A stretch of 64,000 nucleotides of DNA from assembly GCA_018657525.1 (NCBI GenBank), contig JABHWZ010000009.1, forward strand, positions 2,855-66,854. The letters are read 5' to 3'. Made by a program: the position numbers and the translations under genes. This DNA comes from an archaeon (GTDB taxonomy: Archaea > Nanobdellota > Nanobdellia > Pacearchaeales > GW2011-AR1). The notes beneath the pieces were generated by a model, which searched no databases, had not been told where the DNA came from, and saw nothing but the letters and a program-made list of their open reading frames with translations. Shown here piece by piece: positions 6,698 through 61,874 of the stretch (positions are counted from its first letter, which is position 1; each line of letters opens with the position of its first letter).

Positions 6698-6750
6698 GAT
6701 TTGATTTGGAGAAGGTAATTGAGAGTGGGAAATTTGTAATAAGGGATTCA

Positions 6751-6840
6751 GTCGCTTCGCTCTCTACTCCGTAGAACATCAATTTCTGTAGAAATTGACA
6801 TAAACCCCCTACAACTTCTGTAGAAGTAAAAGTTGCTTGG
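6751..6840. repeat. family D-long mini-element (three short palindromes)
   Basis: gtcgcttcgctctctactccgtagaacatcaatttctgtagaaattgacataaacc... matches 25271-25360; its left end abuts a 9-nt copy of the tRNA-Thr T-loop (agggattca, 6742-6750). Confidence 0.8.
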
Positions 6841-6876
6841 CCAATAGGCATACCCCAAATTGCGGAATATTGGGGC
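6839..6876. repeat. family F element, copy 1, in inverted orientation to 7276-7311
   Basis: ggccaataggcataccccaaattgcggaatattggggc is about 85 percent identical to the reverse complement of 7276-7311. Confidence 0.8.
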
Positions 6877-6936
6877 AAATTTACGTGACTTAGAATCCTG
6901 AAGAATTAATATATATTATCTTGCTTCGATAATTGA

Positions 6937-6976
6937 CACTGCTCAGTGTACCTCTTTTTGCGGAGTGCTTGGGCAA
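6937..6976. repeat. family E 40-nt mini-element, copy 1
   Basis: cactgctcagtgtacctctttttgcggagtgcttgggcaa; related copies at 35599-35638 and 58082-58118. Confidence 0.8.
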
Positions 6977-6993
6977 AGCCTGCAGAGGGATTC
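6977..6993 (-). pseudogene. partial copy of the tRNA-Thr 3' end (positions 57-73)
   Basis: agcctgcagagggattc versus agcctgcggagggattc at 7150-7166 (16/17). Confidence 0.8.
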
Positions 6994-7149
6994 CTTTATC
7001 TCCTAATCACGATTTGCACTTTTAAAAATACCTTCGGTAATTTATTAAATCGTAATTACTCGACCCCCAATTGAAAGTTGCTTTGAGTTTACGTGACTTG
7101 GAATCCTGCCAGGATTAATAATATTTAACAAAGTTAAATATTATAGATA

Positions 7150-7221
7150 AGCCTGCGGAGGGATTCAAACCCCCGACCTATTCCTTACAAGGGAATTGCT
7201 CTATCACTGAGCTACGCAGGC
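7150..7221 (-). tRNA. tRNA-Thr (anticodon TGT)
   Basis: The reverse complement folds as a cloverleaf: GCCTGCG acceptor, anticodon loop CTTGTAA, T-arm GGGGG-TTTGAAT-CCCTC, discriminator T. Confidence 0.9.
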
Positions 7222-7275: not shown

Positions 7276-7311
7276 GCCCAGTATTTCGCAATTTGGGTGA
7301 TGCCTATTGGC
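7276..7311. repeat. family F element, copy 2; overlaps the stop codon of rps3ae
   Basis: gcccagtatttcgcaatttgggtgatgcctattggc; see 6839-6876. Confidence 0.8.
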
Positions 7312-8637: not shown

Positions 8638-8760
8638 GGGTTTCTTTTTTCAAAAAAAGAAAAGCTACAGTGTAAAAGAAAACTAAAATTGAAATCTTGA
8701 ATAAGATTTGTGAGTTAGAATCGTTTTCTCTTGCAATCCGAAGAACGATTCCTGTAGGGG
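8638..8760. repeat. family C structured intergenic element, copy 1
   Basis: Shares the hairpin series with 45339-45558 and 61571-61874; the central hairpin loop is inverted (gaat versus attc) and the last stem differs by compensatory changes. Confidence 0.8.
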
Positions 8761-11283: not shown

Positions 11284-11454
11284 ATGGATAATGAAGTATT
11301 GAACTGGATTGGAAATGCGCTAAATTTTTTAATTTTAGTTTATCTTATCCGTACGAATATTATTTTGGGTAGTTTTAATTTCGAGCAAAGCTTAATTGCT
11401 ACTTTTGGATTGTTTGTTGCAGTTTTGATTCAACTTTATAATATAAAAAAATGA
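11284..11454 (+). CDS. small membrane protein (56 aa)
   Basis: Two hydrophobic segments; ATGA overlap with the 1998-aa gene. Confidence 0.4.
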   Translation: MDNEVLNWIGNALNFLILVYLIRTNIILGSFNFEQSLIATFGLFVAVLIQLYNIKK

Positions 11455-14400
11455 TAAATAAAAGAATTTTGTTGGTTGGAATGTTTTTGATATTTGGGAT
11501 ATTTTTATTTGGCGGGGTTAATGCAGCTTATTCAAGTGCGACTCCACAAATTAGTTCTTTTGGGGGAGGGTCTTCTTCATATTTGGCAAAACAAGGAATT
11601 AATTTATTCCCGACAGGGATTGGTGAAAATGGTCAGTGTGGTGCGGGGCAGGATTTTGTTTTACAGATTCATCCGTTAGGATGTAGCCCGAGTTTGGTGA
11701 CTTCTGATTTATTGGAGGAACAGAATGTTCCTGTTTTTTGTCCGATTGTTGCAACGCAAATAAATCCTTTAATTAAAATTAATGCAATTGATTCTATGAT
11801 TTTTTCTGGAACTTATCCTCCAGAGATTTCTGGAATTGGTTTTCATCCGGCTAATGCGGCTGTGTCTGGGCCGGGCAATGATTTGTTGAATTATCCTGTT
11901 TTAGAAAATGTCGGTTATGCAGTAATTGTTTTGAATAGAAATGAGAATGAATCTTCGATGCCGGATTATGTAGAAGGGAATTTGACTGCTAAGATTAGAT
12001 ATGATATTGAAAACGCATTTGGCTTTGGGGATTTTAGAACTTCTATTCCGATAATGAGTGATGTTGAATGGGATGCAAGATATAATGAATTTAATTTTTG
12101 GCAAGGGAAAGGGTTTGTGCGAGTTATGGATATTGATGGGGAAAAGGCAAGTGTTGCGGTGTATGAAGATAAAGATAGAAGGATAGCTAATTTTGATTTA
12201 AAGGTCGGAGAGAGTTCTAGGAAGATTTATCTTGGAGGAAGCTACTGCCTCGCTGGTCTGCAGGTAAAGTTGGAAAATTTGGAGAATCCAGATACAAAGG
12301 TTCGGTTAAAGGTGGATGAAGATTATTTTGAGGTGGGAGTGGGTGAGAAGTTTTTAGAGAATCGATGTACTGTTAATAATATTCAGAAAACAGGTTTATC
12401 AAAGTCAACACAAATTACTTGTAAAGATGACGATAGTTCAAGAAAAGTTTTAAATTTTGAGATTAATCCACAGATAAGTTTGAAGGTTGGAGATAAAGAG
12501 AAGAATTATGTTTTAGGAGATAATTTTAAAATTGGAGAACAAACTTATTATATAACTTATTTGGATTTGGCTGGAAAGTCTACAAATGAAAATTTAATTG
12601 TTTGGATTGCTAGTTTAGATGAGGCTGATACTAAAAAATATGTTAATAATGGAAAATTGAATTCAAGAGGAATTGATGTTTTTTATGAGAATGTTATTTC
12701 AAAACAGGAGGAAGATTTTACTAAGGGGAAAGTGTCAAATAAGAATGTTTGGAAATTAGTTTATGGAAGTAATAATTATGCTAATGTTAATGTCGATGTT
12801 AAAGGATTTGCTAAGTTAGGGGGAACAGGAGAGGAAGGAGTAAATAATGCATGTTCTGATGCTCAAGATTGGTGTCCTCATTTTTTGAATGCTGTTAATC
12901 TTTATAGTGAGGAGTCTGTAAATATTATTAAAGAGGGAAAGGAAGTTAAATATTCTGAACCCGGACTTTTATTTTATAAAAATATTGGGCAGGTTGATAA
13001 ATATAGCTCTCAAATTTCTGGGTTAGAAACTTATACTGAGAAAGGAATTAAAGAGGGGATTGAGTTAGCGATGAAAGTGGAGGATTATGCGAGGAGAGAT
13101 AATTTGATTAGAATTCTTTTAGATAATTTTAATACTAAGGCTAATCAGTTGTATGTTGAAAATAAAATTAATAATTATTATTTGAGTAATTCTGCTGGGC
13201 TTCGAGTAAGCGAGAGTATTTATATTTCGGGCCAGCATAGGGATATAGAATTTGTAGATATTTATCAACCGGGTTTTGAAGATTATGGTGTGGAATTGCA
13301 AATTAGTGGAACCGGAGATAAGATTCGTTTGAGTAAGAATTCTCCGAGTTATTTGTTTAAAGGAAAGATTATTGAATTAGTCGAGTTAAAGGAAAATGAA
13401 GTTAAGCTTAGCACCAATATTGAATCTACTGAACAGAATTCAAGAAATATAATTATTTTGAAACAAGGTGAGGTGAAATCTTTTGTTTTAGAAGAAGGTG
13501 AGATAGAAAATAAATATTCCCTTAAAATAAATAAAATTAATTTAAACAAAGTTGCGAAGGTTAGTGTTTTAGCGAATATTGATAGGACTGGAACTGATGC
13601 AAATATAAGTTTTAAAATTGGAATTGAAAAGCGGGCGATTGATTTGAGTCCGGAGAGAATTGAAAAAATGATTGATAGTTTAAATGAGAGTTTAGTTAAA
13701 TGGGAAGAGAGGTCAGAAAAATTAGGAAACGTCGTCGATGGTTTACAAAAAGCGTGTATTGTAACTGCAGGAGTTTTGACGGTTAAGAATTTATTTTTGC
13801 AGGCAGGAGGGCAGGTAAAAGCAAGAAAGCAAACTATGGAAGATATTAGAGTCTTTTGTAAAAAGACTGATAAATATAAGGGAGATATTCAAGATTGTAT
13901 AAATCAGAAAGGAGAATTGATTGATCAATTACAGAAGACAAACGAAAAGATTGTAAAAGAGCAGGATGCTCGAAGTAAAGAGATAAAGGAAAATTTAGAG
14001 AAAAAGAAATTAGAAGAAGGGCAGAATTATGACACTGAATTTAAGAAAGAATATATTGAAGTAAAAGGATATCAAAAGGAATTGGATGGGCAGTTTGTTT
14101 CAATTGATGAAATGATGGAATATGATTCTTGTAAACAGAGGTTGGTGAAAGATTCTTATTCTACGGGGGTTCTGAAAGAAAAATGTGAGGATGTTGTGAA
14201 GAAGTATGAAACGCAGGTGAGCGAAGCCAAGGCCGTAGAGAATGCAAGATTAGAACGAGAGGGAGAGATTGGGCTAGTAGTTAGCGGAGTTCCAAGTGTT
14301 TTGGCCTTTGCTCCTAAAAATGCTCATTCAGGGATTTGGTCTGGTCAAACTACTGAGGGGAGCAAGATTTCTAATGAATTTTCAGGGGAAAAAAATGTTC

Positions 14401-17400
14401 AGTTTGTTACTCTTTCTGGGGAAGATTATGTTTTAGTTTTAGCAGATAATCCGGATGCAAAAGGAAGGTATTCAGTTACTGATGCTTATAAGTATCAGGG
14501 ACTTAGTGGAGGTTCATTTAAGGGATGGGAAAAAAGTGACACTTTGAAATCTAAATTTATTTTTACAAAAGCAGGTCAGTATAAAACTCCAATTAATAAT
14601 CCTCAAGTGAGATATTTTGGTGCGGCGCCTGATAAAGATTTTCCTGCGATTGTTCCTTTTCCTTATCCTTCTCGGGAGAATAATGGTTATTATGTTGGGG
14701 TAAGGCATAAAACTGTGACTGGGCAATATGCTAAGTCTGGAGAGGCAAAGAGTTATTATGTTTGTAATGCAATGGATGGGGAAATTGATTTTAATCCAGA
14801 GAATCAACAGTTTATGGGGGGAGATAAGTGTATTGGAGTGAATCTTGTTGGAACTAATTTAGTGACTTCGCAAAAGGCGTTTGGTTTATCTGAAGCACAG
14901 ACGAAAGATGTAGTTAGTGCGGCATCGAGGGCAATTAATGAGGCGCAGAGAAAAGTTGGTTCTTCAGCTAAAGGGAGTATTTTGGGGATGGATGTGAATT
15001 TTGGCGACGCTGTATTTAGTACTCCACAAATGCAATGTCAGGATTTTATGTCTCCAACTGATTGTGCTTGGTTATTTAATTTATGTGACCCAGTAATTTG
15101 TCCTGCTTCAAGATGTGATTTTGGAGGTGCAATGCCTGTGGCTGACCCTATTCAGTCTGGGATAATTGGAAGTTTGATTTTATGCTTGCCAAATTTTAAA
15201 ATTGATCCAATGAAAGGTGTTTTGATGCCTGTTTGTTTGACTGGTTTGAAAGCAGGGATGGATGGTTATATTTCAGTTGTTAAGAGTCACAGAGATTGTT
15301 TGATTGAGAAAAAAGAGACTGGGAAAACTGTTGGAATTTGTGATGAGGTTTATAGTTATAATTTGTGTCAGTTATTTTGGCAACAGGTTGCTCCGTTAAA
15401 GGATTTGTTAATTCCTAAGCTTTTGCAATTGTTAACTGGAGGAGGTTTGGGAAGAGGGGGAGGAGAGTATACTAATGCTGCTGCTGCTTGGCAGAATGCG
15501 AGAGATTCTTTGAGTTTTTTTACTCAAAATTATGCTACTACTGCTTATCAAACTTTTAAAGTTCAAGCGGTTGATGAATTACAAAATGAAGTTTGTAAAA
15601 ATTCTATTTCGTCAGTTATCCCTGAGATAGGAGTTTTGAATTCTATGGTTGAGCCGAGTTCGCCGCCTCAATTCCACGCTAAATTTGATGAGGTTTTGTT
15701 TACAGATGCTACTGTGCCACCAATTTCAAAATATAAGGTGTTCTACCATGTATTTGCTGGAAAGAGCTCTGGAGTAAGTTATCAGGTCTATTTGAAGGCA
15801 TCTAGCGAGGGGATTTCACTTTACAAGATTAATCCAACTTATGTTGTGAATAGTGGGTTTATTCCTTTGGGAGAGAGTGCGACTGAGACAAAAGATTTTA
15901 CTGCGCCGACAGGATATGTTGAATTGTGTGTTCGGGTTAATAACCAAGAAGAGTGCGGATTTAAACAGGTGACGACTTCGTTGGCTTTGGATTATCTTAA
16001 TGATCAATTTGTGCAAAATGAAGTAGAGAATACTGAGATTAAAACAGAGGTAGAGTGTATTTCAGGAGGGAATAATATTTACAGCTTTGTGAGTCCGAAT
16101 TTGCAAGGGGGGGCAACTGAATTTGCTAATCCAGATATTTCTCAGCGAGGGATAACCCGTGTTTGTTCAAGTGGAGTTCCGGATGGATTGGTGGAAGAAA
16201 TGAGCAAGTGGGTGAGAGTGGGATATTGTGATGATACAAATTTGGGATGTTGGATTGATAAAGACAGCGTCGAGAATGCAATTACTTTTGCTGGGGCAGA
16301 AGAAGAAACACTTTCAAAATTAAGTTCTGAAACCTTAAATAGATTAGCGGGAGGAAGTATGAATATTGAGGCATATAATAATAATGTGGAGAAAGTTAAA
16401 TTAAATATTGCAGAGATTGAGAAAAGTGGTGATAGAACAAAGGAAACACAAACTGTTAGATTAATTGAACAAACAGCTTTGGTTTCAACTTATTTTACTC
16501 AAGTTCCATTTGATTGGCAGAAGGCAGAGCTGACTTATTTGAAGGCGAGGATTTATGATGTTTTGACAAGGTTAGTTTATAATAAAGAGAGTGGGGAGAG
16601 TCAGGGGGTTGCTCCTTTAACTGATAAAGAGAAAGAATTGATTAATGCTGCAAAAGAGGACAATATTGATAAGGTTCGTTCATTAATTGAGGATGGAGCA
16701 AATGTTAATGCTAAAGATAATGAGGGATTTACTGCATTATTCTATGCTTTAGAACTGAATTATTTTGATATTGTTAATTCATTAATTGATAATGGAGCAG
16801 ATGTTAATACTAATGGGAAAGGGGGAGTGACCCCATTAATCTACGCCTCTTTTTATGGCTATGAAGATTTTGTTAATTCATTAATTGAAAAAGGAGTAGA
16901 TAATTTCAATGCTCAGACTGATGTAGGGATGACTGCCCTAATTCATGCATCACGACAGGGTTATGAGAATATTGCGCAATTATTGATTGAAAAAGGGGCA
17001 GATGTTAATGTTAAAGATGATAAGGGAAATACTGCTTTAATGTATGCTAAGGATGGAGGTTATGAGAATATTGTGCAATTATTGATTGATAATGGGGCAG
17101 AGAGCTCTACTGAAGGTGAAGGGGATCTAGTTGAAGTGACTAGTCCAAAATTGGATAAGGAGAAGACAGGGTTTTATGATGGAGATATTAAAATTCGTTC
17201 AGTAGATTATGGAAAAACAGTAATTTTTAAAATCGTTACTTCTGGGTCTAATTGTGATAAAATTTCATATGACTTTTACAAAAGAGGAATTTTATCAAAT
17301 AATAAATTAAAGCCTTTGAATGAACAATCCTTTTCTTTTAAGAATCTTGTTGTTGGAAATTATTATGTTGATAATATTGTTTGTAAGGTTGGGGGCAAAA

Positions 17401-17447
17401 TCAGGGAAGATTTTGATCCTAAGATATTTGATTTAACTGTGAAATGA
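11451..17447 (+). CDS. giant secreted protein (1998 aa): Sec signal peptide, coiled-coil segment, Cys-rich hydrophobic core, about five ankyrin repeats, C-terminal beta-rich domain
   Basis: MINKRILLVGMFLIFGIFLFGGVNA-AYSS; ankyrin consensus (G.TALxxAxxxGxxxIVxxLIxxGADVN) at aa ~1730-1883; uninterrupted 6-kb ORF. Confidence 0.85.
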   Translation: MINKRILLVGMFLIFGIFLFGGVNAAYSSATPQISSFGGGSSSYLAKQGINLFPTGIGENGQCGAGQDFVLQIHPLGCSPSLVTSDLLEEQNVPVFCPIVATQINPLIKINAIDSMIFSGTYPPEISGIGFHPANAAVSGPGNDLLNYPVLENVGYAVIVLNRNENESSMPDYVEGNLTAKIRYDIENAFGFGDFRTSIPIMSDVEWDARYNEFNFWQGKGFVRVMDIDGEKASVAVYEDKDRRIANFDLKVGESSRKIYLGGSYCLAGLQVKLENLENPDTKVRLKVDEDYFEVGVGEKFLENRCTVNNIQKTGLSKSTQITCKDDDSSRKVLNFEINPQISLKVGDKEKNYVLGDNFKIGEQTYYITYLDLAGKSTNENLIVWIASLDEADTKKYVNNGKLNSRGIDVFYENVISKQEEDFTKGKVSNKNVWKLVYGSNNYANVNVDVKGFAKLGGTGEEGVNNACSDAQDWCPHFLNAVNLYSEESVNIIKEGKEVKYSEPGLLFYKNIGQVDKYSSQISGLETYTEKGIKEGIELAMKVEDYARRDNLIRILLDNFNTKANQLYVENKINNYYLSNSAGLRVSESIYISGQHRDIEFVDIYQPGFEDYGVELQISGTGDKIRLSKNSPSYLFKGKIIELVELKENEVKLSTNIESTEQNSRNIIILKQGEVKSFVLEEGEIENKYSLKINKINLNKVAKVSVLANIDRTGTDANISFKIGIEKRAIDLSPERIEKMIDSLNESLVKWEERSEKLGNVVDGLQKACIVTAGVLTVKNLFLQAGGQVKARKQTMEDIRVFCKKTDKYKGDIQDCINQKGELIDQLQKTNEKIVKEQDARSKEIKENLEKKKLEEGQNYDTEFKKEYIEVKGYQKELDGQFVSIDEMMEYDSCKQRLVKDSYSTGVLKEKCEDVVKKYETQVSEAKAVENARLEREGEIGLVVSGVPSVLAFAPKNAHSGIWSGQTTEGSKISNEFSGEKNVQFVTLSGEDYVLVLADNPDAKGRYSVTDAYKYQGLSGGSFKGWEKSDTLKSKFIFTKAGQYKTPINNPQVRYFGAAPDKDFPAIVPFPYPSRENNGYYVGVRHKTVTGQYAKSGEAKSYYVCNAMDGEIDFNPENQQFMGGDKCIGVNLVGTNLVTSQKAFGLSEAQTKDVVSAASRAINEAQRKVGSSAKGSILGMDVNFGDAVFSTPQMQCQDFMSPTDCAWLFNLCDPVICPASRCDFGGAMPVADPIQSGIIGSLILCLPNFKIDPMKGVLMPVCLTGLKAGMDGYISVVKSHRDCLIEKKETGKTVGICDEVYSYNLCQLFWQQVAPLKDLLIPKLLQLLTGGGLGRGGGEYTNAAAAWQNARDSLSFFTQNYATTAYQTFKVQAVDELQNEVCKNSISSVIPEIGVLNSMVEPSSPPQFHAKFDEVLFTDATVPPISKYKVFYHVFAGKSSGVSYQVYLKASSEGISLYKINPTYVVNSGFIPLGESATETKDFTAPTGYVELCVRVNNQEECGFKQVTTSLALDYLNDQFVQNEVENTEIKTEVECISGGNNIYSFVSPNLQGGATEFANPDISQRGITRVCSSGVPDGLVEEMSKWVRVGYCDDTNLGCWIDKDSVENAITFAGAEEETLSKLSSETLNRLAGGSMNIEAYNNNVEKVKLNIAEIEKSGDRTKETQTVRLIEQTALVSTYFTQVPFDWQKAELTYLKARIYDVLTRLVYNKESGESQGVAPLTDKEKELINAAKEDNIDKVRSLIEDGANVNAKDNEGFTALFYALELNYFDIVNSLIDNGADVNTNGKGGVTPLIYASFYGYEDFVNSLIEKGVDNFNAQTDVGMTALIHASRQGYENIAQLLIEKGADVNVKDDKGNTALMYAKDGGYENIVQLLIDNGAESSTEGEGDLVEVTSPKLDKEKTGFYDGDIKIRSVDYGKTVIFKIVTSGSNCDKISYDFYKRGILSNNKLKPLNEQSFSFKNLVVGNYYVDNIVCKVGGKIREDFDPKIFDLTVK

Positions 17448-17991: not shown

Positions 17992-18019
17992 GGGGCGAAA
18001 GCCCCTTTTTCTTTTTTTT
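17992..18019 (+). terminator. hairpin GGGGC-GAAA-GCCCC followed by a T-run
   Basis: Read directly at 17992-18005, with a T-rich tract to 18019. Confidence 0.6.
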
Positions 18020-18067
18020 AAAAGTTTTTTAAGCTGAGTTATACTACTTTTTTCATGCGGGTATGCC
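18020..18067 (+). repeat. copy 1 of the tRNA-Leu promoter plus tRNA positions 1-11
   Basis: aaaagttttttaagctgagttatactacttttttcatgcgggtatgcc is identical at 18020, 18244 and 18395. Confidence 0.9.
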
Positions 18068-18243
18068 TCCGAGCTTGCAATCTCAATTTGTAATATTTAG
18101 ATACTTTTTTGGTTGTTCTATTTTAGAATTCAAAATCCTCCTTCCATCCCCCTCCCTCCCGCCCGGAGGAAAAGTAATTATTGAATTCTAAAATTATTAA
18201 TTGGTTTAAATAAAGTCAAACTTGTTCTCCCACCCCTCAATTC

Positions 18244-18291
18244 AAAAGTTTTTTAAGCTGAGTTATACTACTTTTTTCATGCGGGTATGCC
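18244..18291 (+). repeat. copy 2 of the tRNA-Leu promoter plus tRNA positions 1-11
   Basis: Same 48-mer as 18020-18067 and 18395-18442. Confidence 0.9.
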
Positions 18292-18365
18292 TCCGAGCTC
18301 CCAACCCTGATTTTTTCCCATTACCCCTTTTTTATTTGAATAAACCCAAAATCAAAGTTGCTCGG
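18292..18365 (+). repeat. family B module, tRNA-Leu locus
   Basis: tccgagctcccaaccctgattttttcccattaccccttttttatttgaataaacccaaaatcaaagttgctcgg is about 88 percent identical to 22626-22697. Confidence 0.85.
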
Positions 18366-18394
18366 GTCAAACTTGTTCTCCCACCCCTCAATTC

Positions 18395-18431
18395 AAAAGT
18401 TTTTTAAGCTGAGTTATACTACTTTTTTCAT
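18395..18431 (+). promoter_or_regulatory. tRNA-Leu promoter (BRE/TATA-like aaaagttttttaagc about 27-37 nt upstream of the tRNA 5' end)
   Basis: A/T box at the canonical archaeal distance; a similar aaaagtt box lies upstream of tRNA-Cys. Confidence 0.5.
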
Positions 18432-18514
18432 GCGGGTATGCCGGAGTGGTCAAACGGGTCAGGTTTAGGACCTGATAGCTTATGCTTACTTAGGTTCGAA
18501 TCCTAATACCCGCA
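18432..18514 (+). tRNA. tRNA-Leu (anticodon TAG), long variable arm
   Basis: GCGGGTA acceptor, anticodon loop TTTAGGA, 15-nt variable arm, T-arm TTAGG-TTCGAAT-CCTAA. Confidence 0.9.
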
Positions 18515-18595
18515 TTTATTGAGATTCGAAGCCTCGGGTTTCGTTGAAGAATTGTGAAGCAATTGCTTTGGCGAGCGAGGATTTACATCCGACGC
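18515..18595 (+). repeat. family A module, tRNA-Leu locus (variant central segment)
   Basis: gattcgaagcctcgggtttcgtt...gagcgaggatttacatccgacgc shared with 21403-21604 (reverse strand) and 22832-22904. Confidence 0.85.
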
Positions 18596-18613
18596 CGAAT
18601 CCTAATATCCGCA
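18596..18613 (+). pseudogene. copy of tRNA-Leu positions 56-73
   Basis: cgaatcctaatatccgca versus cgaatcctaatacccgca at 18497-18514 (17/18); both are followed by tttatt. Confidence 0.9.
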
Positions 18614-18625
18614 TTTATTTTTTAT

Positions 18626-20475: not shown

Positions 20476-21381
20476 ATGGCTACTAAAATTAAAATTACTT
20501 TTTTGGGAACTGCGGATGCAATTCCTAGCGTGAGAAGAAATCATTCAGCTGTATTTTTGAGTTATGATGCAGAGAATATTCTTTTTGATTGTGGGGAGGG
20601 GACACAGAGACAGTTTAGAAAGGCTAGATTAAACCCTGGGAAAGTAACACGTATTTTAATTACTCATTTACATGGGGATCATGTTTTGGGTTTACCTGGT
20701 TTAATGCAAACTTTGAGTTTGTCCAATTATAATAAAACACTTTATATTTATGGGCCAAAAGGTACAAAACAATTTGTTAGAGAAATGTTAAATACTTTTA
20801 AATTTCAAGAAAATTATCCAATTAAAGTGGAAGAAGTTTCTGGGAACTTTTTTGAAAACAAGCATTTTTATTTGGAAGCGGAAAAGATGATTCATGGAAT
20901 TCCTTGTAATGCATATAATTTTGTAAAAAAAGGAAAACTTAGAATTGATAAAAAAAAGTTGAAAAAATCTGGTTTGCCCGAAGGACCTTTGCTGTCTAAG
21001 ATTATTCAGGGGAAAGATGTTGTTTATCAAGGGAAGAAATTTAAATCAAAAGCTTTGACTTATCAAGATAAGGATTTGAAAGTGAGTTTTGTGATGGATA
21101 CTTTAGATAATAAAAGAATTGTGCCTTTTGTTAAAGGGGCAGATGTTTTTGTTTCAGAATCTACATTTAGCTTGGAGGAAAAAGATAAAGCCGAAAAGCA
21201 TAAACATTTGACGTCGGAACAAGCAGCTAAAATTGCAAAAAAAGCAAAAGTAGGGAAATTAATATTAACTCACATTAGTGCTCGTTATGATAAAAATCCT
21301 AAGAAAATTTTACTAGAAGCAAAAAAGATTTTTAGAAAGTCTGAAGTAGTTAAGGATTTAGATGTTTTGGAAGTGGAATAA
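20476..21381 (+). CDS. rnz: ribonuclease Z
   Basis: ITFLGT...FDCGEGTQRQ...ITHLHGDHVLGLPGL, metallo-beta-lactamase tRNA 3' endonuclease pattern. Confidence 0.85.
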   Translation: MATKIKITFLGTADAIPSVRRNHSAVFLSYDAENILFDCGEGTQRQFRKARLNPGKVTRILITHLHGDHVLGLPGLMQTLSLSNYNKTLYIYGPKGTKQFVREMLNTFKFQENYPIKVEEVSGNFFENKHFYLEAEKMIHGIPCNAYNFVKKGKLRIDKKKLKKSGLPEGPLLSKIIQGKDVVYQGKKFKSKALTYQDKDLKVSFVMDTLDNKRIVPFVKGADVFVSESTFSLEEKDKAEKHKHLTSEQAAKIAKKAKVGKLILTHISARYDKNPKKILLEAKKIFRKSEVVKDLDVLEVE

Positions 21382-21384
21382 ATA

Positions 21385-21495
21385 TGGCCCGGACAGGATT
21401 CGGCGTCGGATGTAAATCCTCGTTCGTCCGCTATTGAATTTCTGAAGCGAACGAAACCCAAGGCTTCGAATTCAAAAATAATTTCTTAAAAATTA
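21385..21495 (-). repeat. tandem unit 1: tRNA-Arg positions 56-73, family A module, and a copy of the tRNA trailer
   Basis: tggcccggacaggattcg (18/18 with 21605-21622) followed by gcgtcggatgtaaatcctcg...; starts 3 nt after the rnz stop. Confidence 0.9.
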
Positions 21496-21604
21496 TGGCC
21501 CGGACAGGATTCGGCGTCGGATGTAAATCCTCGCTCGTCCGCTATTGAAATTCTGAAGCGAACGAAACCCAAGGCTTCGAATCCAAATAATTTCTTAAAA
21601 ATTA
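21496..21604 (-). repeat. tandem unit 2: tRNA-Arg positions 56-73, family A module, and a copy of the tRNA trailer
   Basis: About 95 percent identical to unit 1; periods of 111 and 109 nt. Confidence 0.9.
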
Positions 21605-21679
21605 TGGCCCGGACAGGATTCGAACCTGCGACTTTCAGCTTAGAAGGCTGACACTCTATCCAGGCTGAGTTACCGAGCC
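21605..21679 (-). tRNA. tRNA-Arg (anticodon TCT)
   Basis: Reverse complement GGCTCGG acceptor, anticodon loop CTTCTAA, T-arm GCAGG-TTCGAAT-CCTGT. Confidence 0.9.
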
Positions 21680-21733
21680 ATAATAATATTTAAGATAAAA
21701 ACATATTTAAAAGTGTTTGTTTTTAAAGTTAAA

Positions 21734-22576
21734 ATGAAAAAGAGTGTGAAAACACTGAGTTTTCCGGTTAGAGGAAAATACGTTGTAATGCTAGCACCAA
21801 GTTTTGTGGTGGATTTTTCTTACCCTGAAATTATTTTAAAATTAAGACGTCTTGGTTTTGATAAAGTTGTCGAATTAACTTTTGGAGCAAAATTAGTTAA
21901 TAGAGAATATCATAAATTGCTAAAAAAATGTCCCTCAGGATGTTTGATGATTTCTTCTGTTTGTCCTGGAGTGGTGAGTTTAATTAATAATAAATTTTCA
22001 AAGTTAAAAAAGAATTTAATTTTGATAGATAGTCCAATGGTGGCTATGGCGAAAGTGTGCAAGAAAATTTATCCTAAACATAATGTTGTTTTTATTTCTC
22101 CTTGTGAATTTAAAAAACAAGAGGCTGAGGGTTGTAAGGAAATTGATTTTGTGATTAATTTTAATGAATTAAAAGAAATTTTTGCAAAGAAACTTTTTAA
22201 GAGAGAAGATAAAAATTTGTCTACAAGTTTTGATAGGTTTTATAATGATTATACAAAAATATATCCTCTTGCTGGGGGGTTGAGTAAGACAGCTCATTTG
22301 AAAAATATTTTAACAAATAAAGAAAGTATTTCAATAGATGGAATTAAGAGAGTGGAAACTTTTTTAAAAAAAGGAAATTTTGGGAAGTTGAAATTTTTGG
22401 ATGTGAATTTTTGTGTAGGGGGTTGTGTTGGAGGGCCTTACATTAATTCAAGTGTGCCTTTGGTTGTTAAAAAATTAAAAGTAAGAGGTTATTTGAGAAA
22501 ATCTAAACAAGAAGATATACCTGAAATTAAAAAAGGTTTAGTAAAAAAAGCAAAAGGAATTAGTTTGAAGAAGTAA
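21734..22576 (+). CDS. [FeFe]-hydrogenase large-subunit C-terminal-domain-like protein
   Basis: SSVCPGVV, SPMVAMAK, ISPCEFKKQEA and CVGGCVGGP echo the H-cluster-domain motifs TSCCPGW, SPQQM, MPCTAKK and CPGGC. Function unknown. Confidence 0.55.
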   Translation: MKKSVKTLSFPVRGKYVVMLAPSFVVDFSYPEIILKLRRLGFDKVVELTFGAKLVNREYHKLLKKCPSGCLMISSVCPGVVSLINNKFSKLKKNLILIDSPMVAMAKVCKKIYPKHNVVFISPCEFKKQEAEGCKEIDFVINFNELKEIFAKKLFKREDKNLSTSFDRFYNDYTKIYPLAGGLSKTAHLKNILTNKESISIDGIKRVETFLKKGNFGKLKFLDVNFCVGGCVGGPYINSSVPLVVKKLKVRGYLRKSKQEDIPEIKKGLVKKAKGISLKK

Positions 22577-22615: not shown

Positions 22616-22697
22616 GCGCGGATGGTCTGGCTCCCAACTTTGATTTTTTCTCATTACCCCTTTTTTATTTAAATAAACCTAAAATCAAATTTGCTCG
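22616..22697 (+). repeat. copy of tRNA-Cys positions 1-10 (22616-22625) followed by a family B module (22626-22697)
   Basis: gcgcggatgg equals 22759-22768; tctggctcccaactttgattttttctcattaccccttttttatttaaataaacctaaaatcaaatttgctcg matches 18292-18365. Confidence 0.85.
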
Positions 22698-22758
22698 ACG
22701 GCTACATTGTAGCCTTGTACCATCAACTTTAAAAGTTCTGAATTTCTATTTATTTCAT

Positions 22759-22831
22759 GCGCGGATGGCACAGCGGCTACTGCGTCTCCCTGCAGAGGAG
22801 ATTTTCACGGGTTCGAGTCCCGTTCCGCGCT
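22759..22831 (+). tRNA. tRNA-Cys (anticodon GCA)
   Basis: GCGCGGA acceptor, anticodon loop CTGCAGA, T-arm ACGGG-TTCGAGT-CCCGT. Confidence 0.85.
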
Positions 22832-22904
22832 TTAGACGAGAATCCTTGGGTTTCGTTCGCTTCAAAAATTCAATAGCGGACGAGCGAGGATTTACATCCG
22901 ATGC
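22832..22904 (+). repeat. family A module, tRNA-Cys locus
   Basis: ccttgggtttcgttcgcttcaaaaattcaatagcggacgagcgaggatttacatccgatgc is nearly identical to the tRNA-Arg(TCT) units. Confidence 0.9.
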
Positions 22905-22922
22905 CGAGTCCCGTTCCGCGCT
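22905..22922 (+). pseudogene. copy of tRNA-Cys positions 56-73
   Basis: cgagtcccgttccgcgct is identical (18/18) to 22814-22831. Confidence 0.9.
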
Positions 22923-25050: not shown

Positions 25051-25194
25051 GTCTATTTTTTTATTTTTTTTTATTGATTAGTTAAAACCCGAGGACAAAA
25101 AGTTCAATGAAGGGAAGTGATGTAAATATTTTTAAATTGTAATTGATTGTGTTTTTTATTGAAAGTGATTGTATTTTTTGTAGGGGAGAAATTA

Positions 25195-25212
25195 TGGCTC
25201 TGGTGAGAGTTT
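25195..25212 (-). pseudogene. copy of tRNA-Met positions 56-73
   Basis: tggctctggtgagagttt is identical (18/18) to 25413-25430. Confidence 0.9.
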
Positions 25213-25412
25213 GTCGCTTCGCTCTCTACTCCGTAGAATGAGAGTTTCTATTTAAATTTGGAAATCTCATGATCACTTCGTTCTCTACTTCGTAGAACAT
25301 CAATTTCTGTAGAAATTGACATAAACCACCGACGTTCTGTGGAACAAAAAGTTATCTGAATTTTGGGAGCCTAAATTCTCAAAAATTTAAATGGCATTGA
25401 AAATGCCATAAA
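25213..25412. repeat. 200-nt mosaic insert: D-short (25213-25238), atgaga...tctcat hairpin module (25239-25270), D-long (25271-25360), hairpin atggcattgaaaatgccat
   Basis: Matches 6751-6840 (family D) and the atgaga...ttggaaaatctcat module at 46483-46576. Confidence 0.8.
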
Positions 25413-25485
25413 TGGCTCTGGTGAGAGTTTAACTCACGACCTCTGCCTCATGAGAGCAGCGCTCTAAACACTGAGCTACAGAGCC
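25413..25485 (-). tRNA. tRNA with CAT anticodon (elongator Met or Ile2) with atypical D and T loops
   Basis: Reverse complement GGCTCTG acceptor, anticodon loop CTCATGA, D-loop AGTGTTTA, T-loop TTAAACT. Confidence 0.75.
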
Positions 25486-28990: not shown

Positions 28991-29512
28991 TTATGTCTTA
29001 ATCCAATCGACTTCATAGTAACTTACTTTTCCTTCGTGATCTACTATTGCAATGAGAAGTTTCTTTTTTGTGGAATGTGCAACTCTATTTTTTGCAGTGA
29101 ATTCGTGCCAAGTTAATTTTCCTGTTTCTGAATCCACAAAGACAATCCATTTGGCGTGAGATTGTCCTGGTTTTTTTCCTTTACCATAAACTCTAAAATC
29201 TGCTCCAAATTTTAATGCGGTTTTTACAATGTGCCCTTTTTCTCGTAGATCTTCAAAGACTTCGTATTTTAGATTAAATCTTTTATCTATTTTTTGCAAT
29301 TTTTTTTGCAATTCTTGTTCACTTAGTTGTTTGTTTTGTTGTAAAACTTCCAGTTTATTTTGATTGACTAAGAAGAGAGTTTCAACTAGGGAATATTGGA
29401 TTTTGTCTCTTACTCTTTCTCCAAATCTCGATTTGTCGTGCAATTGATATGCCAATGAATCGTTGGTTGATATAATGTGCCCTACAATGTGTGCTTGAAT
29501 TTTGTTTGTCAT
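28991..29512 (-). CDS. endA: tRNA-splicing endonuclease
   Basis: KGHIVKTALKFGADFRVYGKG....SHAKWIVFV matches the catalytic C-terminal domain pattern. Confidence 0.8.
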   Translation of the reverse strand: MTNKIQAHIVGHIISTNDSLAYQLHDKSRFGERVRDKIQYSLVETLFLVNQNKLEVLQQNKQLSEQELQKKLQKIDKRFNLKYEVFEDLREKGHIVKTALKFGADFRVYGKGKKPGQSHAKWIVFVDSETGKLTWHEFTAKNRVAHSTKKKLLIAIVDHEGKVSYYEVDWIKT

Positions 29513-35202: not shown

Positions 35203-35586
35203 TTATTCTGCGAGTTCTCTTAATTTTCCTTGAATTTCTTCGAGTTGTGATTCTAATGTGGAATCATATTTTTGTGTTTTTACTTTACTTATTTTTTCCT
35301 CAATTTTTTCTAACTCTTCGACGGATTCTAAATGATGTTCTTTGAGAATTTGAGGTATTTTTATTTTAGGAAGAGTTCGTTCTAGTTGTTTTAAATTTTT
35401 TACTATTTCCTTAATTCGAGTATAGACTTTTGATTTAGATTTTAGTTCTTCAATTCTTAATGGATGATATCTTTTTATTGTTTGGAGAATTGTTAATAGA
35501 TTTGCTTCTAGAGAAAGAATATCTTTTTTAGATTGAACTGCTTCTTCGTATTCAAGCTTTACATGAATTAATTTTTCTTCTGCCAT
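35203..35586 (-). CDS. coiled-coil hypothetical protein
   Basis: Start moved to ATG 35586 (MAEEKLIHV); the track's GTG start lies inside repeat E3. Confidence 0.5.
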   Translation of the reverse strand: MAEEKLIHVKLEYEEAVQSKKDILSLEANLLTILQTIKRYHPLRIEELKSKSKVYTRIKEIVKNLKQLERTLPKIKIPQILKEHHLESVEELEKIEEKISKVKTQKYDSTLESQLEEIQGKLRELAE

Positions 35587-35598
35587 TTTTGTTTTTAA

Positions 35599-35638
35599 CA
35601 CTGCTTAGTGTGCCCTTCTTTGTGGTTTGCTTGGGCAA
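35599..35638. repeat. family E 40-nt mini-element, copy 3, flanked by TTTTAA direct repeats
   Basis: cactgcttagtgtgcccttctttgtggtttgcttgggcaa; ttttaa at 35593-35598 and 35639-35644. Confidence 0.8.
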
Positions 35639-45338: not shown

Positions 45339-45558
45339 GGGGTTCTTTTTTCAAAAAAAGTAGCGAACGAGTCGCTTCGAGTTCTCCTCCTTCGTCGGAA
45401 AAAAGAACCTACAGTGGTAGAAAATGGGTTTTTCTTTTAGAAAAAGAATAACCACAGTGTAAAAGAAGACTAAAATTGAAATCTTATTCAAGATTTGTGA
45501 GTTAGAATTTTCTTCTTTTTGCCTCCTACAGAAAATTCCCATGAGGGTTTTTCTTTTC
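45339..45558. repeat. family C structured element, copy 2, with duplicated head hairpin and a 39-nt GC-rich nested insertion (45360-45398)
   Basis: ggggttcttttttcaaaaaaa[gtagcgaacgagtcgcttcgagttctcctccttcgtcgg]aaaaaagaacctacagtggtag...aaatcttattcaagattt...gaattttc...gaaaattc. Confidence 0.8.
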
Positions 45559-46377: not shown

Positions 46378-46449
46378 GGGCCTATATTTCAATGGATAGA
46401 ATAACAGGTTTCGGCCCTGTTGATCGAGGTTCGAATCCTCGTAGGCTCA
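46378..46449 (+). tRNA. tRNA-Arg (anticodon TCG)
   Basis: GGGCCTA acceptor, anticodon loop TTTCGGC, T-arm CGAGG-TTCGAAT-CCTCG. Confidence 0.8.
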
Positions 46450-46451
46450 TT

Positions 46452-46600
46452 GAGGATCTGAACCTCGTCCTCACTTTGTTGCGGATGAGACTCTTCCGCT
46501 GAATTGGAAAATCTCATAGTCACTTTGTTCTCAACAAGTTGGATGAGACTCTTCCGCTGAATTGGAAAATCTCATAGAGGATCGAAGCTTTGTAGGCTCA
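46452..46600 (+). repeat. downstream mosaic: degenerate T-arm/3'-end copy (46452-46473), 36-nt perfect tandem repeat (46483-46518, 46541-46576), second 3'-end copy (46577-46600, 20/24)
   Basis: gaggatctgaacctcgtcctca and gaggatcgaagctttgtaggctca versus the real gaggttcgaatcctcgtaggctca; ggatgagactcttccgctgaattggaaaatctcata occurs twice. Confidence 0.8.
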
Positions 46601-57942: not shown

Positions 57943-58239
57943 ATGAGTGAATTTTTATGGCATAAGGTTTCTGAAAAAGAGAAAGAAGAAATTTCTAAAA
58001 AAGCAAAGTTAATAATGGATAATTTTTCTAAAAAGTTAGATTTTGTAAAAGAGAGTATGTCTGAGAATTTTATTGAGGGGGCACTGCTCAGTGTACCTTT
58101 AGTTGCGGAATGCCATGGTAAAATTTTTGAGAGGGAGGAAGGTAATTGTGAAGGGTTGGATATAAATAGAAAAGTTATGTTTGAGAATGCTCCTCAAAAA
58201 AATGATTCTTTTATAATTGCGGAGAAAAAGAAATGGTAG
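57943..58239 (+). CDS. gatC: GatC-like amidotransferase subunit C carrying an 18-aa in-frame insertion
   Basis: C-terminus REEG....R..MFENAPQKNDSFII resembles GatC (REDE...NAP...G.F.VP); gatA lies two genes downstream. Confidence 0.5.
   Translation: MSEFLWHKVSEKEKEEISKKAKLIMDNFSKKLDFVKESMSENFIEGALLSVPLVAECHGKIFEREEGNCEGLDINRKVMFENAPQKNDSFIIAEKKKW
58082..58118. repeat. family E mini-element, copy 2, inside the gatC-like CDS
   Basis: cactgctcagtgtacctttagttgcggaatgccatgg; the first 17 nt are identical to 6937-6953. Confidence 0.8.
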
Positions 58240-61570: not shown

Positions 61571-61685
61571 GGGGTTCTTTTTTCAAAAAAAGAACCTACA
61601 GTGGTAGAAAAAAATATGTTGACAAATCTTATTCAAGATTTGTGAGTGAGAATTTTCTTCTTTTTGCCTCCTAAGGAAAATTCCC
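61571..61685. repeat. family C structured element, copy 3
   Basis: ggggttcttttttcaaaaaaagaacctacagtggtag...aaatcttattcaagattt...gaattttc...gaaaattccc. Confidence 0.85.
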
Positions 61686-61874
61686 GGCCCTCCCCCTCTT
61701 TTTTCAAAAAGAAAATCTACAGGGGTAGAAAAAAATATGTTGACAAATCTTATTCAAGATTTGTGAGTGAGAATTTTCTTCTCTGCTCAAGCTCACACTC
61801 GCTTTTTGTGACGTTCGCTTTGCTCACAAATTTTTGCGAGGGTAAACTTTCGGCCTCCCATGGAAAATTCCCCC
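61686..61874. repeat. family C structured element, copy 4, tandem to copy 3, with a 71-nt nested insertion (61783-61853)
   Basis: Same hairpin series; the last stem is interrupted by ctgctcaagctcacactcgc...gggtaaactttcgg. Confidence 0.8.

Follow-up and report, generated by a model that had tools for sequence, protein, structure and literature searches.

Short modules bounded by duplicated gene-end segments at the tRNA genes of a Pacearchaeota archaeon and its relatives

Duplicated tRNA ends and their modules in the window

We analyzed a 64,000-nt stretch of archaeal DNA (hereafter the window; positions 2,855 to 66,854 of contig JABHWZ010000009.1, assembly GCA_018657525.1) in which every tRNA gene is followed by a short module lacking an open reading frame (ORF) and then by a second copy of the gene's own 3' end. 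The case that drew attention, an 18-nt repeat beside tRNA-Leu, is best explained as one layer of a lineage-wide process in Pacearchaeota. The window is an archaeal housekeeping region—with genes for TFB, ribosomal proteins S8e and S3Ae, aminoacyl-tRNA synthetases, GatDE, FtsZ, RNase Z, and EndA—and the named-source homologues of its TFB come mostly from Candidatus Pacearchaeota. It holds six intact tRNA genes:

7150-7221, - strand: tRNA-Thr(TGT), intact (ARAGORN; Rfam)
18432-18514, + strand: tRNA-Leu(TAG), intact (ARAGORN; Rfam RF00005, 59.7 bits)
21605-21679, - strand: tRNA-Arg(TCT), intact (ARAGORN; Rfam)
22759-22831, + strand: tRNA-Cys(GCA), intact (ARAGORN; Rfam)
25413-25485, - strand: tRNA-Met(CAT), intact (ARAGORN; Rfam)
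46378-46449, + strand: tRNA-Arg(TCG), intact (ARAGORN; Rfam)

An earlier note on this DNA had reported that the last 18 nt of tRNA-Leu, CGAATCCTAATACCCGCA (18497-18514; T-loop position 56 to the discriminator), recur downstream, and both coordinates and sequence bear this out: the outer copy, CGAATCCTAATATCCGCA (18596-18613), is 17/18 identical with a single C>T difference, TTTATT stands after both copies, and CCA is not encoded. The layout described in that note for all six tRNAs also holds, in that 6/6 have a same-strand downstream copy of their own 3' 18-mer, set off from the gene by a discrete, ORF-less module of 71-200 nt, and mid-tRNA 18-mers gave no repeats for any of the six. Copies are exact (0 mismatches) for Arg(TCT) at both 21496-21513 and 21385-21402, for Cys (22905-22922), and for Met (25195-25212), with two mismatches over the 18-mer for Thr (6977-6994; one at the junction base) and three for Arg(TCG) (46583-46600; 15/18), and the duplication often runs a few nt beyond the discriminator. 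What had been missed are the tandem units at Arg(TCT) and mirror copies of the 5' ends at Leu and Cys. Downstream of the genes, the features are as follows (D numbers denote repeats of the window):

6742-7149, - strand: nested trailer of tRNA-Thr, repeats D8 and D13; profile match to module family G weak (E=0.38)
18515-18595, + strand: Leu 3' module, family A, with T-run TTTATT, inverted local T-arm copy, and hairpin core ending GAGCGAGGATTTACATCCGACGC
18596-18619, + strand: outer tRNA-Leu 3'-end copy (positions 56-73, 17/18) plus duplicated TTTATT
21385-21604, - strand: Arg(TCT) array of two tandem family A units, with its end 3 nt from the RNase Z stop codon
22832-22922, + strand: Cys 3' module, family A (core 22834-22904), plus exact 18-nt 3'-end copy
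25194-25412, - strand: Met 3' composite module, 199 nt, with exact 3'-end copy; repeats D8 and D18
46450-46600, + strand: Arg(TCG) 3' module with decayed 3'-end copy; repeat D18

That one module serves three tRNA species, each time with fragments of the local tRNA, was also correctly recognized. Specifically, the family A core, GAGCGAGGATTTACATCCGAYGC, is present in four window copies at <=1 mismatch (18573, 21403, 21514, 22882; dinucleotide shuffles expect 0), and each copy directly abuts position 56 of the local tRNA 3' copy, i.e., at Leu, at Cys, and twice at Arg(TCT). The Cys core and an Arg(TCT) copy share 96.6% identity over 58 nt, and each Arg(TCT) unit consists of a trailer hairpin, the 71-nt core, and a copy of CGAATCCTGTCCGGGCCA. 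The trailers of Met and Thr are nested, with several layers of a module plus a progressively degenerate fragment: the Met composite combines a terminator hairpin with two family C units that end in GAGCGAAGCGAC and an inner T-arm that is both degenerate and interrupted, and the Thr trailer runs from a 155-nt module (a weak family G relative) through the 3' copy at 6977-6994, more repeats, and a family C unit (6752-6812) to a degenerate third fragment, TGAATCCCT, at 6742-6750. Because 3' modules open with an inverted copy of the local T-arm—18517-18530 at Leu and 46452-46467 at Arg(TCG), where the whole T-arm is inverted and two 58-nt tandem hairpin units follow; the Arg(TCT) module opens with GGATTCGAA—folds show the beginning of the module paired with the outer copy.

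On the upstream side, tRNA-Leu and tRNA-Cys carry the following:

18018-18067, + strand: outermost copy of promoter and first 11 nt of tRNA-Leu (GCGGGTATGCC, 18057-18067); repeat D4
18068-18214, + strand: unrelated module of ~147 nt after that outermost 5' copy
18215-18291, + strand: second copy of a 77-nt block; repeat D4, 100% identical to 18366-18442
18292-18365, + strand: Leu 5' module B, foldback core with arms GCTCCCAACCCTGATT / AAATCAAAGTTGCTC; the family G core reversed
22616-22625, + strand: outer copy of the first 10 nt of tRNA-Cys (GCGCGGATGG)
22626-22758, + strand: Cys 5' module with reversed family G core (~22630-22700); repeat D19

Two extra copies of the first 11 nt thus lie upstream of tRNA-Leu, and the 77-nt block is made up of a D-loop remnant (GTCAAAC), the promoter, and those 11 nt. 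Module B, a long imperfect hairpin, shows 91% identity between Leu (18292-18365) and Cys (~22626-22700), and a piece of the local D-loop directly trails it in both places: GTCAAAC at Leu and, at Cys, CGGCTAC (22699-22705), followed by a hairpin and the intact gene's promoter. This makes the outer 5' copy a longer tRNA fragment interrupted in the D-loop.

Two inverted repeats in the window involve tRNA loci. The family A units of Arg(TCT) and Cys (21393-21587 and 22831-22914) form 75-84-nt inverted repeats, 88-92% complementary and 1.2-1.4 kb apart, between which lie the two tRNAs and a gene for an Fe-hydrogenase-like protein (21713-22576); in relatives, tRNA-Arg(TCT) and tRNA-Cys are adjacent and in the opposite orientation to the window, a difference that suggests rearrangement via the modules. 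A 35-nt inverted repeat (6840-6874 and 7277-7311; 89% complementary) brackets tRNA-Thr with its promoter, first module, and fragment, and could mediate inversion of this cassette; its right arm, which overlaps the S3Ae gene's end, is similar to the start of family E (GTCGCCAATA...CATCACC).

Recurrence, polarity, and turnover among relatives

Through TFB we obtained 87 syntenic loci of relatives (0.96 Mb in total including the window; individual loci are labeled L031 and the like), and 153 non-redundant, intron-aware tRNA loci of these relatives made up the survey set. A downstream 3'-end copy accompanies 33/153 loci, an upstream 5'-end copy 19/153, and either one 47/153 (31%; five have both), with which a separate earlier count agrees. 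Among these 153 loci, 3' pieces occur downstream only and 5' pieces upstream only, and no end piece was found on the opposite strand. Copies of the modules all sit at tRNA gene ends and no dispersed sites were seen in the loci examined; off-tRNA copies, which the earlier note had regarded as evidence against mobility, were not encountered.

The outer edges of the duplications are regular. In 18/20 cases on the 3' side they fall 0-2 nt beyond position 73 (the discriminator), and in 14/16 on the 5' side 0-3 nt before +1, the exceptions being tandem units. Inner edges are placed within the T-loop, mostly at positions 53-58, or within the D-loop (12-21), with 3'-side boundaries ranging from about position 43 to 62, and the duplicated segment is variable in length (11-24 bp or longer), extending from the T-loop to the discriminator at 3' ends and from +1 to the D-loop at 5' ends. 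As inner edges vary among relatives, the junction at position 56 (i.e., 55/56) that the earlier note had singled out is a property of families A and C and not a general rule. A restriction-type cut at TTCGAA behind the 55/56 junction was considered and rejected, as the T-loops of Met, Thr, Cys, and the tRNA-Arg of L068 lack TTCGAA yet carry modules. Insert lengths span 33-250 nt among scored cases, and a 20-nt layer was seen by eye in L031. Only two inserts in the 0.96 Mb exceed 300 nt, both of them one 1.2-kb cassette (L031, L009), and so the short modules are the normal unit and not random remnants of large elements.

The modules form families that recur across genomes and tRNA species. Family A, hosted by Leu, Cys, and Arg(TCT), has a duplication of 20-24 nt (38 nt in the tandem unit). 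Family D, with a GAAAACCRCAGGKGTTTTCA hairpin at its end, occurs 3' of tRNA-Leu, 3' of tRNA-Cys, and once 5' of tRNA-Leu (L009), where it is flanked by an 11-nt repeat spanning -9 to +2. Family G reads ...GGTTCGA, then CGAGCAAC...GTTGGGAGC, then ATCC..., has its inner edge at 56-63, and lies 3' of Leu, Arg, and Cys genes (weakly also Thr) in several genomes; a profile of these 3' copies matches module B of the window on the strand opposite the tRNA (nhmmer, E=1.3e-5 at 18364-18297; 0.029 at Cys), and the GCTCCCAAC arm faces the outer fragment at both gene ends. G/B modules share conserved, imperfect inverted arms, and the arms GAGCAACTTTGATTT / AATCAGGGTTGGGAGC are identical in the window and L048 around 35 nt that are unrelated—a combination of conserved arms and variable center that would be expected of protein-recognized ends. 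Family E is a 40-nt 5' module in six lineages, the hairpin of which is paired in 96.7% of cells with compensatory changes at 2/5 pairs (4/500 shuffles reach this; the sample is small). The proximal side of 3' modules often bears a terminator hairpin plus T-run and that of 5' modules a TATA-like box, and module sequences are more conserved between lineages than adjacent intergenic DNA.

Two generalizations about the modules were set aside. A mirror-image orientation rule holds for G/B and fails for family D, which has the same orientation at its 5' site in L009. Fossil T-arms of other tRNAs (CTAGG at L048 Arg, a Met-like hairpin at Arg(TCG)) were ambiguous, since hairpin loops vary, and were not used.

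Occupancy differs between relatives. Empty sites, to which the earlier note had attached weight, do exist: orthologous sites are variably empty or filled with different families. For instance, L045 and L032 have ~88% identical flanks, and at tRNA-Leu the 3' site is empty and the 5' site filled in L045 and the reverse in L032, the outer flank of the filled site matching the flank of the empty one. The closest relative found, L048 (94% TFB identity), carries different families from the window at the same tRNAs, and its contig breaks off within a tandem array. L037 has, between the gene and an older, truncated G module, a more recent module with a 12-nt repeat. Among TFB-identical strains, tRNA-Cys has two units in L006, one in L007, and in L008 a truncated unit without terminal hairpin and tRNA fragment. 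The orientation of tRNA-Leu and tRNA-Arg relative to their neighbors also flips between relatives.

The outer copies decay. Of 20 differences between gene and outer copy, 13 are C>T or G>A, and 12 of these 13 transitions are C>T on the tRNA-sense strand; they break stem pairs that the gene copy keeps. The outer copies are unselected and, because most are identical to the gene or one step away, young relative to lineage divergence. The same change, GCCGG->GTCGG (GCCAG->GTCAG in L060), is seen independently in outer tRNA-Leu 5' fragments of L018, L048, and L060, and may mark a deamination hot spot at a methylated cytosine.

These data bear on whether the modules are selected RNAs or cis signals, i.e., trailer or leader RNAs transcribed together with the tRNA and freed by RNase Z or RNase P, or terminator/promoter cassettes, with the tRNA-end copy belonging to a functional structure; a trailer RNA released by RNase Z had been offered in the earlier note. 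Such a function would be consistent with conservation above that of adjacent intergenic DNA, covariation in the family E hairpin, the terminator-like and TATA-like elements inside modules, a possible four-way junction formed by the family A core together with the outer copy's first 7 nt, and an RNase Z gene that abuts the Arg(TCT) array. Yet the family G core is used in both orientations relative to tRNA transcription, C>T changes in the outer copies break pairing, orthologous tRNAs lack modules or have unrelated families, T-run terminators separate tRNA from module, and the modules fold no more stably than shuffled sequence (z-scores -0.7 to -2.1). No module matched Rfam even at E<=1, the window giving only its six tRNAs and two weak chance matches at the gathering threshold and at E<=1. 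We therefore consider a selected RNA or signal very improbable. A C/D-box or ribozyme reading was likewise rejected, with no motifs by eye and no Rfam match.

Hardly credible, in our view, is the idea that the proximal 3' end and the module up to the distal copy constitute a giant T-loop intron or split tRNA, to be excised by the splicing endonuclease, of which the distal copy is the true 3' exon. tRNA introns are frequent in these archaea (35/181 tRNAs of the related loci, 15-126 nt), EndA is encoded in the window (28991-29512), and one intron is common to neighboring tRNA-Arg and tRNA-Cys in L086. The genes, however, are complete without splicing, the distal copies are the decayed ones, and BLAST of the 35 canonical introns against the modules gave no significant similarity (by eye, only a short GATGAGAAGAACC..GGTTC resemblance). 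No bulge-helix-bulge (BHB) motif appeared at in-register cut sites, the single high score being the palindrome CCGG, though this test is weak: its positive control, the canonical intron of tRNA-Cys in L084, failed the programmed filter (by hand it has a full central helix and outer helix and no inner helix). Split-tRNA pairing of a 5' fragment transcript with a 3' module was rejected as well, as no complementarity was seen by eye and a single locus has different families on its 5' and 3' sides.

At L086:5992-6348, a Cys(GCA) gene neighbors a gene that ARAGORN calls SeC(tca), at the position of tRNA-Arg(TCT) elsewhere, and the two hold nearly the same long canonical intron (ATGAGAAGAACC..GGTTCTCCTTCACAATCTCTCC...), which looks like transfer between different tRNA genes. 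In TFB-identical strains, the canonical tRNA-Cys intron measures 126 nt (L006:7743-7941) and 66 nt (L007:7803-7941), and the longer one contains an internal tandem duplication.

Origin of the modules and other features of the region

We hold with moderate confidence that the modules are miniature non-autonomous mobile elements that target the ends of tRNA genes and owe their movement to a trans-acting enzyme not encoded in the window; at least family G can be read as a MITE-like element (MITE, miniature inverted-repeat transposable element), with conserved arms. What the data show directly is how the loci are built, that families recur, their polarity, the variation between empty and filled sites, nesting, and decay; active transposition and the kind of enzyme are inferred. 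Under this reading, ORF-less hairpin or foldback modules of ~20-250 nt would insert at both tRNA gene ends, the far side of each insertion being bounded by a second copy of an 11-24 bp gene-end segment; because that segment is duplicated, the gene beside the module stays intact. New insertions would strike the intact gene, giving nested and tandem layers and pushing older units outward, where they would be amplified or lost by unequal recombination between direct repeats, and decay.

Insertion itself could follow either of two routes. Staggered cuts at the loop and the gene terminus, with fill-in, would produce a long target duplication and would explain one family with local fragments of several tRNAs as well as the leader-only repeat in L009; Cas1/casposase-type integration is the known precedent for such a geometry. 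Alternatively, a circular form of the element carrying a gene-end patch might insert Campbell fashion, which would explain identity that stops exactly at gene termini, the terminators or TATA-like boxes of the modules, and foreign alleles around the 1.2-kb cassette.

This cassette, at tRNA-Leu in L031 and L009, is the only insert that carries genes (a Pol-beta-type nucleotidyltransferase and a ~115-aa partner) and has on either side long repeats composed of the tRNA 3' part and a D module. In each genome, the outermost fragment has the tRNA-Leu allele that is functional in the other (CCTAT/TACCCGC vs CCTTT/CACCCGC). Either the DNA could have arrived with a tRNA segment from another host, or the fragment could be a fossil of an ancestral allele. 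Regular passenger status for the gene pair was rejected, since homologous pairs in six other loci are not beside tRNAs.

The layout had been likened to the classic attachment-site (att) footprint of tyrosine integrases, and part of that comparison stands, namely the direct tRNA-end repeat beside an intact gene; an integrase-bearing relative and a fixed, tRNA-specific core do not. The modules could be footprints or cis-mobilizable remnants of classical tyrosine-integrase elements (plasmids or viruses) that repeatedly integrated in the 3' or 5' parts of tRNA genes, carried replacement gene ends with a terminator or promoter, and through internal deletion left fused arms between attL and attR. 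Direct tRNA-end repeats beside an intact gene are a known signature of integration (PMC9897764; PMC3293823), an end of identity exactly at gene termini is expected if only the tRNA part of a patch is selected, the proximal terminator hairpin plus T-run (3') or TATA-like box (5') fits, and the reciprocal foreign alleles of the cassette are as for a Campbell-type insertion from another host. Against this, neither the window, nor the inserts, nor the 0.96 Mb of relatives hold an integrase, the sole insert above 300 nt carrying the nucleotidyltransferase pair, and longer integrase-bearing relatives, for which the earlier note had proposed to look, were absent from those loci and from pattern scans of IMG/VR. 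There, arm patterns of family G gave only chance matches (nine, all in high-GC phage coding DNA; a longer pattern none). Known footprints measure 9-120 kb, as against 20-250 nt here without a continuum to kilobases. Further, the same 71-nt unit is found at three tRNA species and identical remnants are not expected from independent deletions, an attP core has specificity for a single tRNA and families A and G carry fragments of several with varying inner edges, and the layout is repeated at 5' ends, with family G mirrored there. We regard this origin as unlikely.

Several observations weigh against mobile elements moved in trans. No match to integrase, transposase, reverse transcriptase (RT), Cas1, or PolB was found among scanned window ORFs >=100 aa, in line with the earlier note as regards the first three and RT (the scan left out short ORFs overlapping annotated genes, and several scanned ORFs had no match at all), nor inside any insert of the window or the related loci. 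Duplication length and inner edge appear to vary even within a family, which would not be expected of a fixed-ruler transposase. Family A lacks terminal inverted repeats (TIRs) of its own, its ends pairing only via T-arm-derived copies, and exact-pattern scans for its core beyond the window, from which the earlier note had hoped for further copies, gave no useful match (none in viral and metagenome contigs, one chance match in Bacteroides in genome contigs). De novo insertion was not caught between near-identical strains, among which only copy-number change and decay were seen, and empty sites could also be explained by precise loss through direct repeats. The reciprocal alleles of L031 and L009 favor patch-carrying (Campbell-type) insertion, at least for the cassette. 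Finally, the inverted local T-arm in 3' modules and the D-loop remnant that follows several 5' modules do not result from simple target duplication, and both the staggered-cut and the Campbell route leave them unexplained.

Those T-arm copies and D-loop remnants are what keeps alive an origin by repair or template switching, in which no dedicated element exists and the modules arise as side effects when breaks are repaired, or replication switches template, at tRNA genes that are highly transcribed and form structures: the conserved T-loop palindrome TTCGAA and the D-loop would serve as microhomology, filler would come from other tRNA flanks, and fold-back synthesis would yield the inverted T-arms, which, with the D-loop remnants, are hard to get by simple transposition. 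Inner edges that vary by several nt within the only sequences common to different tRNAs, left junctions in T-runs, strain-level tandem gain and loss (even inside a tRNA intron), and flips of tRNA orientation between relatives are all consistent with it. Against repair stand the family G arms, 100% conserved between genomes around a different center, which points to end recognition, as well as hairpins that keep pairing through compensatory change, discrete units identical at different tRNAs, outer edges very regular at gene termini, and a frequency (31% of loci) that is high for rare multi-switch repair. We judge it quite unlikely.

Other features of the region are listed here as observations in their own right. 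The RNase Z gene (20476-21381) ends 3 nt from the outermost tRNA-Arg(TCT) 3'-end copy, and the EndA splicing endonuclease at 28991-29512 is 173 aa long. A 1998-aa protein (11451-17447) has C-terminal ankyrin repeats, visible as 99-nt DNA repeats at 16645-17124, and relatives encode giant proteins of 2051-2942 aa at the syntenic position, one of which matches an SLT domain. Repeat family D1 is intergenic (8644-8729, 45431-45516, 61576-61661, 61697-61782), with the palindrome AAATCTTATTCAAGATTT followed by GTGAGTTAGAAT, and is possibly a regulator-binding site or promoter module. The 44-nt repeat D13, with hairpin ACACTG..CAGTGT, has copies at 6933-6976, 35595-35638, and 58078-58121, of which one borders the outer fragment of tRNA-Thr, another is just upstream of where ORF 35203-35601 begins, and one falls within 57944-58238. 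A weak CRISPR-DR25 match at 2517-2541 (32.1 bits against a gathering score of 36; E=0.013), a single copy within a region of overlapping ORFs, is probably due to chance. Among the relatives, a DPANN contig (L101:1-2582) has an SRP54 gene with an intein carrying a LAGLIDADG domain (precomputed Pfam matches).

Related systems and wider meaning

tRNA genes are classical landing sites of mobile DNA. Tyrosine-integrase elements and their integrase-less derivatives, the cis-mobilizable elements (CIMEs), either carry an integrase or have an obvious integrase-bearing partner sharing their att core. Known tRNA-targeting integrative elements range from 9 to 120 kb (PMC9897764). The modules resemble integrative elements and CIMEs in the succession of intact tRNA, insert, and direct repeat of a gene part, in accretion and nesting, and in an element-supplied terminator or promoter, but differ in being 20-250 nt long, in having one family at three to four tRNA species, and in that the search for integrase-bearing relatives found none.

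Transposition of archaeal tRNA introns and the disruption of tRNA genes by mobile elements were reportedly treated by Fujishima et al. in 2010. With such intron transposition and disruption (PMC3293823), the modules share related short sequences in different tRNA genes of a lineage, displaced fragments beside the functional gene, and D- and T-loop positions; those systems, however, consist of BHB introns that are located in the gene and spliced, or of a 1.8-kb insert with a recombinase, whereas the modules lie outside an intact gene, showed no BHB motif, and are unlike the canonical introns of the same genomes.

Casposons have a comparable geometry. They have TIRs, target-site duplications (TSDs) of 14-35 bp, tRNA gene 3' ends as targets, and tandem arrays sharing a TSD (PMC4779613); in family 2 casposons (Methanosarcina, Aciduliprofundum), the segment of ~18 bp from the TΨC loop to the 3' end is the recognized unit, and solo ends exist (PMC4779613, PMC5137440). 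Location at tRNA 3' ends, a long duplication, and tandem arrays that share it are features the modules have in common with them. Casposons, however, are large, encode Cas1 and PolB, and have a duplication length that is constant within a family, and the 15-bp duplication of the A. boonei casposon is beside the tRNA end segment and not in it (PMC4779613, PMC5137440), whereas the modules are 20-250 nt, ORF-less, apparently variable in duplication, and also at 5' ends, with no Cas1 seen in the window or inserts. MITEs, dense in some DPANN genomes according to a prokaryotic census (PMC11602168), are likewise small, ORF-less, multi-copy, and taxon-specific, and family G adds conserved, imperfect inverted ends around a variable center; like MITEs, the modules would be non-autonomous, and no autonomous insertion sequence sharing their ends was present in the loci examined. 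MITEs, however, have a short target duplication of fixed length and are scattered through intergenic DNA, whereas tRNA gene ends were the only places where the modules were found, their duplication is long and variable, and family A lacks inverted repeats of its own. In short, the geometry of casposons is shared, their size and genes are not, and DPANN MITEs are known but not tied to tRNA ends.

In the literature searched, there was no description of such modules at both tRNA gene ends, and they seem to be miniature mobile elements of a hitherto undescribed family that spares the gene. Known occupants of tRNA genes are kilobase-sized with their own integrase; the modules are a hundredfold smaller and use both gene ends, and roughly one in three tRNA loci is affected, in a lineage of very small genomes. 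A more specific proposal, which we put forward tentatively and with less confidence than mobility as such, is that Pacearchaeota, and perhaps other DPANN, harbor tRNA-end-specific miniature transposons (20-250-nt foldbacks) mobilized by a Cas1-like ruler integrase or a new enzyme. Cuts in the D- or T-loop and at the terminus would then duplicate the terminal segment, such that the essential gene survives, and layered records of past insertions would build up beside tRNA genes in the manner of CRISPR arrays.

These modules have practical consequences for the reading of such genomes: layered fragments can be mistaken for pseudo-tRNAs, and modules break assemblies (e.g., the L048 contig that ends in an array). 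Their inverted and direct repeats may drive the tRNA inversions and the cassette capture seen in relatives, and they provide a handle on how archaeal tRNA genes gain introns, splits, and fragments. If the elements are indeed active, they would represent a minimal way to parasitize an essential gene and would imply a trans-acting enzyme with specificity for tRNA ends—one that could be a programmable, site-specific integrase.

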